Shown: in pieces, positions 12,001 through 54,000 of the stretch
Layout: each line of letters begins with the position of its first letter
Numbering within the stretch: position 1 is the stretch's first letter
Source: Escherichia coli
Lineage (GTDB): Bacteria > Pseudomonadota > Gammaproteobacteria > Enterobacterales > Enterobacteriaceae
Assembly (NCBI RefSeq): GCF_003334405.1
Contig: NZ_QOWM01000019.1
DNA: 60,909 bases
Direction: 5' to 3' (one strand)
Made by a program: the position numbers

Positions 12001-15000
12001 TTTTAACATTTCATATTTATAATTTGCTGTTTGTTTTCAGCCTTGCAAACTATTGATAATGAAATGTGTAAGATCTCTTGCAATGCGACCCATTTCTGAA
12101 ATACTCAGCTGATCAATTGCCGAAAAAATGGCTATCAACGTAAGTGTCAGTAATAAGACAACCACAATTGCAGACATGATTTCTTTATAGTTGTCTCTTT
12201 GCGTGATTTTGTTTTTCACTGTGGTCGCATGCATTTCAAATATGTTTATTTAGCGGATAACGTTAAAAATCGTTAATCAGTATGCTTAATATAACAGGCT
12301 GGAGAAAAGAGGAAATAGGACTGGTGCTTCAGTACTGAGCGGAGTTTCTTACAGCTGTAGGCAGAAGTTTATATCTTATAGTATGTAGTTTAATTTAATC
12401 CATGTGAGCAAATTGCGAAATAATAGTCAATGAGGAATTCTTCTGCTGTGCGGATGACAGCAGAAGAAATGAGAAGAGGCATTAATTTGATGGTTCTAAT
12501 TCAACCGGAATACTTTTATAGCCAGGAATGCCACTTAATGGATCGTGGTTATCAAGTGTTAGCATGTGATTCGATTCTGGAAAATAGGTCACCAGTGAGC
12601 GGTCAGCCATAGGGTAAATGACCACTTTTAATCTATCCATGCGGCGTGAGCTGCGCTTACCGTCTGGCGTAAGCGCAATAAGATTAACTCTTTCGCCGTT
12701 TTTTACACGGCAAATTTTAGCTTGTTTAGCACTCATAAAGACCACATCTCGTTGACCGAATACCCCTCGATAGCGATCATCCATACCATAAATCGTCGTG
12801 TTGTACTGATCGTGGCTGCGTACTGTCGCCATGACCAGCTTACTGTTAAACGCTGAAGAGGGATCTTCTAACAGCCCTTTGCTGGTAATGAAATTAGCCT
12901 TACCTGACGGCGTCATCCAGCGCCTTTCAGCAGCTGCATTTATCAGGTGAAAACCACCGGGATGACGGATGCGCTGGTTATAGTCGGCGAACTCTGGCAG
13001 CACAGCTTCAATGTCATTGCGAATGCGATCATAATCTTCCACCAGATACTCCCAGGCTACCACGCTCTGGGGTAGTGCTGCCTGCGCGATTCCCGCGACC
13101 ACTGCACACTCTGATTTCAGCATTACACCGGCGGGTTTTAACACGCCACGCGAGGCATGAATCATCGACATTGAATCCTCAACGGTTACCGCCTGCGCAC
13201 CGTTTTTTTGCATGTCAATCTCGCTACGTCCCAGGACCGGCAGAATATAGCTATGCCGTGCGGTCAACAGATGAGAGCGGTTAAGCTTAGTGGCTACGTG
13301 TACCGCCAAATCTAATTGCGTTAACGGTACAGCGCTCGCTTCCCGATCTGGCATTGCCAGCGCAAAATTGCCCCCCATGCAGATCAATGCTCGAGCCTGC
13401 CCCGTACATATTGCTTGCATGCTGGCAATTGCAGCATGTCCAGGTGCATGAGGTGGGGTGAAGCCATAGCGCTCACCCAGACGAGCCAGAAACTCTGCAG
13501 ACGGTTTCTCGGTGATACCGACGGTTCGGTCGCCCTGTACATTAGAGTGTCCACGTAGTGGGCAGATACCCGCACCAGGCTTGCCAATGTTACCTTTCAT
13601 CAACAGCAGATTGACCAGTTGCTGTACGTTCTGGGTACCATGTTCGTGCTGAGTGATCCCCATTCCGTAACAGATAATGGTGCGTTCGGCAGCGGCATAT
13701 GCGTCAGCCAGTTCGGCGATTTGTGTCTGACTTAGTCCAGAAATACGTTCGATATCTTTCCACTCGGAATTGAGAACGTCACGGCGTAGCTCGTCAAAGC
13801 CGACGGTATGCGTTTGAATAAACTCGTCATCAAGCAATGAAGGCCGACCTGCGGCGCTTGCAGCATCATCGCGCTCAATTAACAGGCGCATCATCCCCTT
13901 GAGCAACGCCATATCGCCACCAATGCGCACGTTATAGTAGGCACTGGCCAACTGAGTCTCAGAGTTCGTCAGCATTTCAAACGGGTTTTGCGGTGCGGTA
14001 AATCGCTCCAGGCCACGTTCCTGTAGAGGATTGATGGCGATCATTTTCGCTCCCCGTTTCACTAAAGCGCGCAACGAAGTCAGCATGCGAGGGTGGTTTG
14101 TACCAGGGTTATGCCCAATGCAAATGACTAAATCGCACTTCTCAAAGTCTTCCAGCAACACGGTCCCTTTACCTACACCGATACTCGCTGCCAAACCCAC
14201 GCTTGTCGGTTCATGGCACATGTTGGAGCAGTCGGGAAAGTTATTGCTCCCGTATTCACGGGCAAAAAGCTGATAAAGAAAGGCAGCTTCATTGGAAGTG
14301 CGGCCCGAAGTATAGAATTCAACCTGATTGGGATCACTATAGCTTTGAAGGCGTGCGCCAATTTCGTCGAAAGCTTGTTGCCAGCTTAATGGCTTGTAAC
14401 AGTCGCTGACGGCATCATATTTCAAAGGCTGAGTGAGTCGCCCCGCAGCCTCAAGCTCGTGGTCTCCCCAGGTAAGTAATGATTGAACCGTATTCTCAGC
14501 AAAGAAAGAGGCGTTTACCTGCTTATCCGTGACTTCCCAGGCGATTGCTTTTGCGCCGTTTTCACAAATGTCGAATGACGCACTGTGCTTAGGATCTGGC
14601 CATGCACAACCCGGACAGTCAAAGCCCTCTGGCTTATTCATGTCAAACATGGCAATAACATCCTGGCGTATATCCATCTGCTTACGTACTGCATTCGCTA
14701 CGGATTTAACAGCACCCCAACCACCTGCAGCACCCTGGTAGGATTCAATTTTTTTCTTCATCTACTTATCCTGTGTGGAAATGAATTATTAGGATTTGTA
14801 ATAGCGATGATGCACAGTACATACAAAGGGATTATCGCCAACATGGATATATAAGAGTAGGGGACTACTCTCTTTCTATTTTTAATCTATTATCGTTAAA
14901 CAATAGATTAAATACGATAAGTTAAGCATCATCTCTCATAGTGTTTAAATTAACATATTTTTCAATATAAAAAATAAGACTCTGGCTTCAATTGTGCGCG

Positions 15001-51000: not shown

Positions 51001-54000
51001 AAATGGGATGACTAATGAACGGAGATAATCCCTCACCTAACCGGCCCCTTGTTACAGTTGTGTACAAGGGGCCTGATTTTTATGACGGCGAAAAAAAACC
51101 GCCAGTAAACCGGCGGTGAATGCTTGCATGGATAGATTTGTGTTTTGCTTTTACGCTAACAGGCATTTTCCTGCACTGATAACGAATCGTTGACACAGTA
51201 GCATCAGTTTTCTCAATGAATGTTAAACGGAGCTTAAACTCGGTTAATCACATTTTGTTCGTCAATAAACATGCAGCGATTTCTTCCGGTTTGCTTACCC
51301 TCATACATTGCCCGGTCCGCTCTTCCAATGACCACATCCAGAGGCTCTTCAGGAAATGCGCGACTCACACCTGCTGTCACGGTAATGTTGATATGCCCTT
51401 CAGAATGTGTGATGGCATGGTTATCGACTAACTGGCAAATTCTGACACCTGCACGACATGCTTCTTCATCATTAGCCGCTTTGACAATAATGATAAATTC
51501 TTCGCCCCCGTAGCGATAAACCGTTTCGTAATCACGCGTCCAACTGGCTAAGTAAGTTGCCAGGGTGCGTAATACTACATCGCCGATTAAATGCCCGTAG
51601 GTATCATTAACCAATTTAAATCGGTCAATATCCAACAACATTAAATAAAGATTCAGAGGCTCAGCGTTGCGTAACTGATGATCAAAGGATTCATCAAGAA
51701 CCCGACGACCCGGCAATCCCGTCAAAACATCCATATTGCTACGGATCGTCAGCAAATAAATTTTGTAATCGGTTAATGCCGCAGTAAAAGAAAGCAACCC
51801 CTCCTGAAAGGCGTCGAAATGCGCGTCCTGCCAGTGATTTTCAACAATAGCCAGCATTAATTCCCGACCACAGTTATGCATATGTTGATGGGCAGAATCC
51901 ATTAGCCGAACGTAAGGTAATTCATCGTTATCGAGTGGCCCCAGATGATCAATCCACCGACCAAACTGGCACAGTCCATAAGAATGGTTATCCGTTATTT
52001 CTGGCTTACTGGCATCTCTCGCGACCACGCTGTGAAACATACTCACCAGCCACTGGTAGTGGGCATCGATAGCCTTATTGAGATTTAACAAGATGGCATC
52101 AATTTCCGTTGTCTTCTTGATCATTGCCACTCCTTTTTCACAGTTCCTTGTGCGCGCTATTCTAACGAGAGAAAAGCAAAATTACGTCAATATTTTCATA
52201 GAAATCCGAAGTTATGAGTCATCTCTGAGATAACATTGTGATTTAAAACAAAATCAGCGGATAAAAAAGTGTTTAATTCTGTAAATTACCTCTGCATTAT
52301 CGTAAATAAAAGGATGACAAATAGCATAACCCAATACCCTAATGGCCCAGTAGTTCAGGCCATCAGGCTAATTTATTTTTATTTCTGCAAATGAGTGACC
52401 CGAACGACGGCCGGCGCGCTTTTCTTATCCAGACTGCCACTAATGTTGATCATCTGGTCCGGCTGAACTTCTCGTCCATCAAAGACGGCCGCAGGAATAA
52501 CGACATTAATTTCACCGCTCTTATCGCGAAAAACGTAACGGTCCTCTCCTTTGTGAGAAATCAAATTACCGCGTAGTGAAACCGAAGCGCCATCGTGCAT
52601 GGTTTTTGCGAAATCAACGGTCATTTTTTTTGCATCATCGGTTCCGCGATAGCCATCTTCTATTGCATGAGGCGGCGGTGGCGCTGCATCCTGTTTTAAA
52701 CCGCCCTGGTCATCTGCCAACGCATAAGGCATGACAAGAAAACTTGCTAATACAATGGCCTGAAATTTCATACTAACTCCTTAATTGCGTTTGGTTTGAC
52801 TTATTAAGTCTGGTTGCTATTTTTATAATTGCCAAATAAGAATATTGCCAATTGTTATAAGGCATTTAAAATCAGCCAACTAGCTGTCAAATATACAGAG
52901 AATTTAACTCACTAAAGTTAAGAAGATTGAAAAGTCTTAAACATATTTTCAGAATAATCGGATTTATATGTTTGAAAATTATTATATTGGACGAGCATAC
53001 AGAAAAAGCAAATCACCTTTACATATAAAAGCGTGGACAAAAAACAGTGAACATTAATAGAGATAAAATTGTACAACTTGTAGATACCGATACTATTGAA
53101 AACCTGACATCCGCGTTGAGTCAAAGACTTATCGCGGATCAATTACGCTTAACTACCGCCGAATCATGCACCGGCGGTAAGTTGGCTAGCGCCCTGTGTG
53201 CAGCTGAAGATACACCCAAATTTTACGGTGCAGGCTTTGTTACTTTCACCGATCAGGCAAAGATGAAAATCCTCAGCGTAAGCCAGCAATCTCTTGAACG
53301 ATATTCTGCGGTGAGTGAGAAAGTGGCAGCAGAAATGGCAACCGGTGCCATAGAGCGTGCGGATGCTGATGTCAGTATTGCCATTACCGGCTACGGCGGA
53401 CCGGAGGGCGGTGAAGATGGTACGCCAGCGGGTACCGTCTGGTTTGCGTGGCATATTAAAGGCCAGAACTACACTGCGGTTATGCATTTTGCTGGCGACT
53501 GCGAAACGGTATTAGCTTTAGCGGTGAGGTTTGCCCTCGCCCAGCTGCTGCAATTACTGCTATAACCAGGCTGGCCTGGCGATATCTCAGGCCAGCCATT
53601 GGTGGTGTTTATATGTTCAAGCCACGATGTTGCAGCATCGGCATAATCTTAGGTGCCTTACCGCGCCATTGTCGATACAGGCGTTCCAGATCTTCGCTGT
53701 TACCTCTGGAAAGGATCGCCTCGCGAAAACGCAGCCCATTTTCACGCGTTAATCCGCCCTGCTCAACAAACCACTGATAACCATCATCGGCCAACATTTG
53801 CGTCCACAGATAAGCGTAATAACCTGCAGCATATCCGCCACCAAAAATATGGGCGAAATAACTGCTGCGATAGCGTGGCGGTATAGCAGGAAGATCCATA
53901 TTTTCCGCCACCAGCGCCCGCAATTCAAAATCATCGACATCCTGCATTGCTTCGTTTTCTTCCAGGCAATGCCAGCGCATATCGAGAAGTGCGGCGCTAA

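Follow-up and report, generated by a model that had tools for sequence, protein, structure and literature searches.

Does the physical neighbourhood of a signalling connector and the targets of the system that it activates tell us anything about how the relay works? The question is raised by a stretch of Escherichia coli DNA of 60,909 nucleotides (contig NZ_QOWM01000019.1 of assembly GCF_003334405.1; hereafter the window), which holds safA together with EvgA boxes at one end, and mgtS and mgrR at the other. An earlier note on this DNA had described a regulatory relay encoded end-to-end, whilst warning that the linkage might be coincidental. The chain itself, running from EvgS/EvgA to safA, on to PhoQ/PhoP, and from there to a regulon with mgrR and mgtS among its members, has been established by earlier work; what is at stake here is whether its arrangement along the chromosome carries any meaning of its own.

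Relay parts present and absent

The window corresponds to positions 1571726-1632636 of K-12 MG1655 (NC_000913.3) at 99.94% identity. safA, the two EvgA boxes, mgtS, mgrR and the PhoP box of mgrR were each located where the earlier note had placed them (Table 1), and all of these named relay parts are already characterised elements of E. coli K-12, whose genes and links are textbook biology. The description of a relay encoded end-to-end did not stand: the annotation of the corresponding K-12 interval contains neither evgAS nor phoPQ, and since the genes of both two-component systems (EvgS/EvgA and PhoQ/PhoP) are found at other places on the chromosome, the window does not hold the relay from one end to the other. 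Within the window, safA and mgtS are 38.7 kb apart, and about 25 unrelated genes lie between the inputs and the outputs (lsr, mar, hipBA, uxaB, sad and others), which agrees with the unrelated operons previously described there. Stress genes are plentiful across the window, and include gadBC, ydeP, ydeO, glsB, marRAB, dgcZ and ydeI. We also considered whether the 1-bp difference of the window from MG1655 restores the yneO autotransporter, and rejected this, the longest open reading frame being 1431 aa against ~1806 aa for the intact protein.

Table 1. Genes and regulatory sites of the two loci, in window coordinates.
Feature	Position	Strand	Description and basis
ydeO	11201..11962	-	AraC-family regulator of the acid response, in one transcript with safA; NF007407 equivalog at 605.7 bits (cut-off 348)
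safA	12037..12234	-	65-aa membrane connector activating PhoQ; translation, PF17073, annotation
putative EvgA box of safA-ydeO	12346..12363	.	1 mismatch; 112 bp upstream of the safA ATG (12234)
ydeP	12482..14761	-	acid-resistance putative oxidoreductase, known EvgA target; K-12 annotation transferred
putative EvgA box of ydeP	15005..15022	.	18-bp inverted repeat with 2 mismatches, 244 bp before the start codon of ydeP (14761)
candidate PhoP half-sites of mgtS promoter	50819..50835	+	AATTCA-N5-CGTTTA; phylogenetic footprint
mgtS	50920..51015	+	31-aa PhoP-induced small membrane protein; NCBIfam NF033842, annotation
mgtT	51015..51119	+	34-codon open reading frame after mgtS; annotation and translation
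mgrR	51091..51188	-	PhoP-induced Hfq-dependent small RNA, convergent with mgtS; K-12 annotation transferred
putative PhoP box of mgrR promoter	51224..51240	-	AGTTTA-AGCTC-CGTTTA; centre ~44 nt upstream of the mgrR 5' end

The safA locus and its EvgA boxes

The SafA protein matches the Pfam SafA family PF17073 over residues 1-64 (159 bits, E 2.8e-47), its product carries the RefSeq label two-component system connector SafA, and a single central hydrophobic segment, IMSAIVVVLLLTLTLIAIFSAI, can be made out in the translated sequence. Downstream of safA, ydeO follows after a gap of 75 bp, and the translation of ydeP is full length. The pattern TTCYTACA-N2-TGTARGAA, the 18-bp EvgA consensus reportedly due to Masuda and Church and to Itou et al., is found at exactly two sites of the window with at most 2 mismatches, as compared with 0.04 in shuffles, and a count of two was reached in none of 100 shuffled sequences. 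A third EvgA-like match inside ydeO (11404-11421) has 3 mismatches and was set aside as chance, 0.68 matches being expected at that stringency. The safA promoter holds no PhoP box at up to 2 mismatches, and the literature reports lower safA promoter activity through PhoP. The bin of lowest G+C in the window (39.5%) is that of safA-ydeO, which is consistent with recent acquisition.

The components found here are identical to those of the EvgS/EvgA to SafA (B1500) to PhoQ/PhoP cascade of E. coli (PMC9496106, PMC11825808), the connector cascade of Eguchi et al. 2007 and 2012 that both of these sources summarise. Set against that cascade, the window offers nothing new, and it lacks the genes for both sensors and both regulators.

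A separate observation concerns the neighbouring F9 (ydeQRST) fimbrial operon. At 18450-18466 of the window, on the minus strand and 6 kb from safA, stands a perfect PhoP box, which overlaps the -35 of a promoter-like site oriented toward this operon; the consensus is perfect in all eight of the diverse E. coli genomes compared, with substitutions at non-consensus positions only. A box so near safA counts to some extent against coincidence. Perhaps F9 fimbriae are an unrecognised output of PhoP, and therefore of EvgS through SafA, in which case the relay would have a nearby output other than those proposed in the earlier note, and the E. coli-specific ydeP-safA-ydeO-F9 stretch could form one module responsive to acid and Mg2+; we regard this as less likely than not, but worth recording. 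If true, PhoP control of F9 would add an adhesin to the Mg2+/acid signalling network of E. coli, a modest gain for colonisation biology.

The mgtS-mgrR locus and its PhoP sites

At the other end, mgtS (yneM) and mgrR are convergent and PhoP-dependent (PMC3536696; bioRxiv 10.1101/2021.06.30.450655). MgtS scores 80.6 bits against NCBIfam NF033842 over residues 1-31, for a cut-off of 35, and mgrR is enclosed by a full-length match to Rfam RF01407/STnc560 on the minus strand (51009-51222; 281.1 bits against a gathering score of 55). The last 29 nt of mgtT are antisense to the 3' end of mgrR.

As the criterion for a PhoP-activated promoter we used a direct repeat, (T/G)GTTTA-N5-(T/G)GTTTA, near -35. 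A putative PhoP box does precede mgrR, as the earlier note had it, and the end of the box coincides with the coordinate at which that note had ended its interval; the repeat is centred near -44, and its mismatches are confined to the two degenerate positions. Such a motif is in itself weak evidence, as matches are common at this stringency: with up to 2 mismatches, 28 were found in the window against 19 expected, which is near the level of chance. Support for the mgrR box comes from its conserved position and from the literature, rather than from the motif match. Across 20 sequences from Escherichia, Citrobacter and Salmonella, neither the promoter-proximal GTTTA nor the TT upstream of it varies. 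Another PhoP-like match, at 51095-51111, was discarded, being the terminator stem of mgrR.

The strict search, at up to 2 mismatches, returned no PhoP box in the mgtS promoter. The candidate half-sites listed in Table 1 are degenerate in E. coli, with 4 mismatches, and were recovered only by alignment; in some Citrobacter species they read GGTTCA-N5-TGTTTA, and the columns TTCA..TT.G.TTA are invariant in 14 sequences (Escherichia, Salmonella and Citrobacter). A conserved -10 element, TAATAT/TACTAT, follows 12 nt downstream of the half-sites, and from it the transcription start is inferred.

The PhoP-controlled mgtS/mgrR pair is reportedly to be credited to Moon and Gottesman 2009, Wang et al. 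2017 and Yin et al. 2019. The genes, their convergent layout and their PhoP dependence are the same here, and the only addition that we make is the conservation of the PhoP half-site and of synteny in representatives of Citrobacter and Salmonella.

A relay that would act in trans

How might the two loci communicate? Three steps are taken from the literature: safA is controlled by EvgA; SafA acts on PhoQ, whose sensor domain it binds and whose kinase activity it raises; and PhoP controls both mgrR and mgtS. The first locus is the AT-rich ydeP-safA-ydeO islet, apparently confined to E. coli and Shigella. At mildly acidic pH, EvgS would phosphorylate EvgA (both encoded outside the window), which would then bind the inverted repeats at 12346-12363 and 15005-15022 and switch on safA-ydeO and ydeP; SafA would sit in the inner membrane, where its periplasmic C-terminus would stimulate autophosphorylation of PhoQ. 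The second locus is the older, enterobacterial convergent pair mgtS-mgrR: phosphorylated PhoP, likewise encoded outside the window, would bind the direct repeats before mgtS and before mgrR, after which MgtS would stabilise the Mg2+ importer MgtA, and MgrR would repress eptB and other mRNAs. We infer from these steps that mgrR and mgtS are induced by EvgS activation through SafA; our literature search returned no paper comparing, with and without safA, how far EvgS activation induces mgrR or mgtS. Cis proximity adds nothing to this mechanism, because the two loci are linked only through diffusible or membrane proteins that are encoded far away.

Linkage within E. coli

Within the species, the linkage of safA and mgtS-mgrR is real, if unremarkable. 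Of 5426 genomes, 5386 carry safA-ydeO and 5417 carry mgtS-mgrR, and the order safA ... mgtS/mgrR is kept in the sampled E. coli genomes. This preserved order could be read as a sign that the linkage is selected, the connector gene and the PhoP outputs being held in one neighbourhood for co-inheritance, or for co-regulation at the level of a domain (for example, H-NS silencing and derepression shared across the stress region); the AT-rich left third of the window, and the presence of several acid and envelope stress genes in it, speak in the same direction. However, the members are not lost together, and the co-variation that a meaningful linkage would predict is not there: at least 31 complete genomes keep mgtS-mgrR without safA-ydeO, and natural deletions take safA and leave mgtS-mgrR, as in strain JNEC-KY203, in which an IS1 deletion has removed ydeT through ydeO whilst mgtS is retained. 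Neither is the spacing held constant: it differs by over 10 kb among strains, and islands, prophages and IS elements have entered the interval. safA and mgtS are about 42 kb apart in the O157:H7 strain F1273, strain DG343-1 has them more than 49 kb apart, and in strain 300709 a tandem filamentous prophage lies within the interval.

This plasticity suggests a further reading, in which the closeness of the two loci came about neutrally: mgtS-mgrR would already have stood in a terminus-proximal, insertion-tolerant region when the safA islet was acquired there. As plastic regions gather accessory stress genes, such a process could give the look of a functional neighbourhood. The low G+C around ydeO-safA would fit, as would the strain-specific deletion of the F9 operon, the hipA truncation, the 8-kb island, the ftrA and rhodanese gene, the IS1 copies, the inovirus prophage in the interval, and the Qin prophage at the right end. 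Our opinion on this history is evenly divided. In either case, it refines the explanation by coincidence and does not replace it.

Distribution across genera

The earlier note had proposed to look for conservation of the linkage across lineages, and here the two loci part company. We found 143 SafA relatives, which share roughly 70% identity or more, and wherever a relative is named it belongs to E. coli or Shigella. When 1.84 billion representative proteins were searched exhaustively with HMMER, 17 SafA matches came back, all at 70% identity or more, and no relative below about that level; the most divergent variants sit on E. coli-like metagenome contigs. The absence of safA from Citrobacter and Salmonella is thus judged from protein searches and from one review, according to which SafA, like EvgS/EvgA, is limited to E. 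coli and Shigella (PMC9496106).

The mgrR core 20-mer, in contrast, turned up in species representatives of Escherichia, Citrobacter and Salmonella enterica subsp. arizonae, 18 of them once contaminants were set aside, and also in one metagenome-assembled genome labelled Raoultella. In those genomes mgtS adjoins mgrR, and synteny extends to the neighbours ydeE, dgcZ or ydeI, and dcp. Whilst mgtS-mgrR thus appears to be broad and safA narrow in distribution, as far as these searches reach, a linkage conserved across lineages did not emerge. A lineage-specific safA next to outputs that are not lineage-specific is difficult to reconcile with selection for the pair, and this alternative is largely refuted, being contradicted by the distribution data.

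Proximity and chance

How surprising, then, is a distance of 39 kb? Assuming 20-40 PhoP-controlled loci on a chromosome of 4.64 Mb, the probability that one or more of them falls within 39 kb on either side of safA is 0.29-0.49 (the PhoP-regulon listing of RegulonDB holds 58 genes), so that safA and a PhoP target are no closer here than chance would place them. A probability of 0.3-0.5 for chance alone, unrelated intervening operons, and regulators that all act in trans weigh further against selection for linkage, to which we give hardly any credence. Cross-lineage linkage, co-loss, closer-than-chance proximity and the presence of all components are what would mark a selected functional cluster, and none of the four was found.

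Comparison with known systems leads the same way. PmrD likewise connects two two-component systems; its gene stands next to the arn (pmrHFIJKLM) operon, and resembles safA in being a connector gene near an output of the downstream system. However, pmrD and arn are immediate neighbours in several genera, whereas here the distance is at least 39 kb and variable, with unrelated operons between, in one lineage. The acid fitness island of E. coli, gadE-mdtEF-gadXW-hdeABD-slp, offers another likeness, in that acid-response genes are clustered under EvgA/YdeO/GadE control; yet it is one contiguous co-regulated block, whilst the window has two separate loci with ~25 unrelated genes between them.

To conclude, we are highly confident that the window holds two independent, already characterised loci which stand 39 kb apart by coincidence. 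The earlier note was right to be cautious on this point; the meaning that it had tentatively seen in the physical linkage is not supported, since the pairing is, as far as the searches reach, confined to a single lineage and shows no co-variation, which is the outcome that the note itself had named as refuting its idea. The useful outcome is a negative one, in that physical linkage carries no extra information: for a regulon of the size of PhoP's, regulator input and output within one 60-kb window are to be expected by chance, and are not the mark of a designed module.

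Gene content and the proposed relay

The window matches positions 1571726-1632636 of E. coli K-12 MG1655 (NC_000913.3) at 99.94% identity over 60,909 bases; the differences are 32 substitutions and two indels of one base each. The K-12 annotation is therefore transferable to it. By that annotation, the left part reads gadB'-pqqL-yddBA-ydeMN-ydeO-safA-ydeP, the remnant of the F9 fimbrial operon (ydeQRST), hipBA and yneO; the lsr operon, tam, uxaB, glsB, sad, marRAB, eamA, ydeE and mgtS follow, and then mgtT, mgrR, dgcZ and ydeI, and the window closes with the left end of Qin prophage. 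The 34 differences from MG1655 are unevenly spread: ten fall at 60628-60885, in the last 280 bases just within Qin, against about one per 2.5 kb in the rest, which argues that the prophage end differs in descent from the flanking chromosome.

The earlier note described a relay running from EvgS/EvgA through the connector SafA to PhoQ/PhoP and its targets, encoded end-to-end within 40 kb. Its named elements (safA, EvgA boxes, mgtS, mgrR and a PhoP box) all lie where it placed them. The end-to-end description does not hold: neither evgS/evgA nor phoQ/phoP is among the genes of the interval in the transferred K-12 annotation, and what the window contains is one connector and two of several dozen PhoP outputs.

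Genes and regulatory sites discussed in the text, in window positions
Feature	Position	Strand	Description
safA	12037-12234	minus	65-aa product; Pfam SafA match, 159 bits
ydeO			downstream of safA; NCBIfam equivalog match, 605.7 bits
EvgA inverted repeat (putative site)	12346-12363		before safA; ≤2 mismatches to TTCYTACA-N2-TGTARGAA
EvgA inverted repeat (putative site)	15005-15022		before ydeP; ≤2 mismatches to the same motif
PhoP box TGTTTA-GTCAC-GGTTTA (candidate)	18450-18466	minus	perfect consensus match
mgtS promoter PhoP half-sites (putative)	50819-50835		invariant alignment columns
mgtS	50920-51015	plus	encodes 31-aa MgtS protein
mgrR	51091-51188	minus	inside full-length Rfam STnc560 match, 281 bits
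PhoP direct repeat AGTTTA-AGCTC-CGTTTA (motif match)	51224-51240		end of the interval in the earlier note

EvgA and PhoP sites

EvgA directly activates safA-ydeO, and SafA, which resides in the inner membrane, activates PhoQ through its periplasmic C-terminus (PMC9496106, PMC11825808). Shuffled sequence yielded 0.04 EvgA repeats at the stringency that returned the two in the window; a third match, with 3 mismatches and within ydeO, was rejected, as such matches occur at chance frequency. The window's lowest G+C bin (10001-12000, 39.5%) marks this acid-response islet. PhoP lowers safA promoter activity according to the literature; between safA and ydeP (12235-12481) we found no PhoP box at ≤2 mismatches, and the sequence gives no evident location for this feedback. 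The only PhoP-like sites there are three with 3 mismatches, near the safA start codon.

At the other end of the interval, mgrR and yneM (mgtS) are convergently transcribed and directly activated by PhoP (PMC3536696; bioRxiv 10.1101/2021.06.30.450655). At the stringency of the mgrR box, PhoP-box matches across the window are barely above chance (28 found, 19 expected). No close match was found in the E. coli mgtS promoter, whose half-sites emerge only when 14 sequences from Escherichia, Salmonella and Citrobacter are aligned, as invariant columns with a conserved -10 element 12 nt downstream; half-sites are conserved at both the mgtS and mgrR promoters. In O157:H7 F1273, ftrA and a rhodanese-like gene sit between ydeE and mgtS (6214-7675 of that locus, L024), and the mgtS promoter must therefore fit into the ~108 bp that remain 5' of the gene.

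The annotated mgtT ORF (51015-51119, plus strand) crosses a G+C-rich hairpin and T-run at ~51034-51075 that resembles an mgtS terminator, and over its final 29 nt the ORF lies antisense to the 3' end of mgrR. Alignment to Citrobacter is limited to roughly the first 22 codons, suggesting that part of the apparent mgtT conservation may reflect RNA structure instead of coding.

A candidate PhoP box before the F9 operon

The perfect PhoP box 6 kb from safA is the only one in the window, where base composition predicts 0.04. The box and the -35 element of a promoter-like site overlap; this site has the orientation of the F9 operon and a -10-like CATAAT at 18433-18438. The K-12-type deletion has its junction at 18354: the genes of the major subunit (fimA-like) and the chaperone and the usher gene's 5' part are gone, and the regulatory region upstream of F9 now runs into the middle of ydeT. 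Where the operon is intact, 275-291 bp separate the box from the fimA-like start codon downstream. The segment bearing the box was found in 4918 of 5426 genomes. All of eight diverse E. coli genomes keep the perfect consensus, as two alleles differing solely at one spacer and one degenerate position, inside a ~95-nt invariant block with variable flanks. Our literature search found no publication linking F9 or ydeQRST to PhoP. The operon is a candidate for PhoP control through this box, for which conservation within the species is weak evidence.

Distribution of safA and mgtS-mgrR

Searching 5.8 billion proteins by word index returned 143 SafA relatives, each at ~70% identity or above and, wherever the source was named, from E. 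coli or Shigella; exhaustive HMMER against 1.84 billion cluster representatives gave 17 matches, all at ≥70% identity and mostly fragments. A review likewise restricts SafA, as it does EvgS/EvgA, to E. coli and Shigella and proposes co-evolution of SafA with EvgS/EvgA (PMC9496106). By contrast, the 20-nt mgrR core occurs among species representatives in E. albertii, E. whittamii, ~15 Citrobacter species and Salmonella enterica subsp. arizonae. It adjoins mgtS in 18 of 20 loci (17 without the contaminated contig L007), with ydeE, dgcZ or ydeI, and dcp as shared neighbours where the retrieved stretch extends far enough. On contig L007 (SMXE01000224.1, labelled a Caldithrix sp. MAG), eamA-ydeE-mgtS-mgtT encode proteins 99.7-100% identical to those of E. 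coli; the contig is almost certainly E. coli contamination in a public metagenome-assembled genome. Judged by these narrow and broad distributions and the conserved half-sites, the PhoP-mgtS/mgrR module predates safA and occurs without it.

Complete E. coli genomes carry safA-ydeO in 5386 and mgtS-mgrR in 5417 of 5426 cases, so at least 31 have the latter without the former; in JNEC-KY203, an IS1-bounded deletion has removed ydeT through ydeO and left mgtS, mgtT and dgcZ. The order safA...mgtS is kept, as for most of the E. coli chromosome, and the spacing varies: 38.7 kb in the window, ~42 kb in O157:H7 F1273 (F9 operon intact, ftrA and rhodanese gene inserted), >49 kb in DG343-1 (additional 8-kb island) and larger again in strain 300709 (tandem filamentous prophage), with large deletions affecting the interval in one metagenome scaffold. 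The 300709 prophage (27600-43000 of its locus, L001) consists of inovirus-like tandem copies beside the yneL/ydeT remnant, within the safA-mgrR interval, with zonular occludens toxin-family, GspD-like and replication genes; its insertion place looks like an integration hot spot.

Discussion

Induction of mgrR and mgtS via SafA upon EvgS activation follows from published links, because EvgA activates safA, SafA activates PhoQ and PhoP activates both genes; our literature search found no publication testing it directly. Every link is made by trans-acting proteins, and cis proximity therefore has no mechanistic reason. RegulonDB lists 58 PhoP-regulon genes; assuming 20-40 independent PhoP loci on a 4.64 Mb chromosome, the chance of finding one or more within 39 kb of safA is 0.29-0.49, and of one falling in the same 60.9-kb window as safA 0.23-0.41. 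The effective chance is higher still, since any regulatory relation among ~60 genes could have been noticed. Could safA and the PhoP outputs nonetheless have been kept together as a selected neighbourhood? The preserved gene order would speak for such selection. Against it, the linkage occurs in a single lineage and safA does not co-vary with mgtS/mgrR, which is the outcome that the earlier note named as refuting its reading; we consider a selected neighbourhood very improbable. A meaning for the linkage is not supported, and its parts were all previously known.

We are confident that coincidental synteny best explains the proximity of safA to mgtS-mgrR. A lineage-specific, AT-rich acid-response islet would here lie near an ancestral PhoP-controlled locus, both in a region tolerant of many insertions and deletions.
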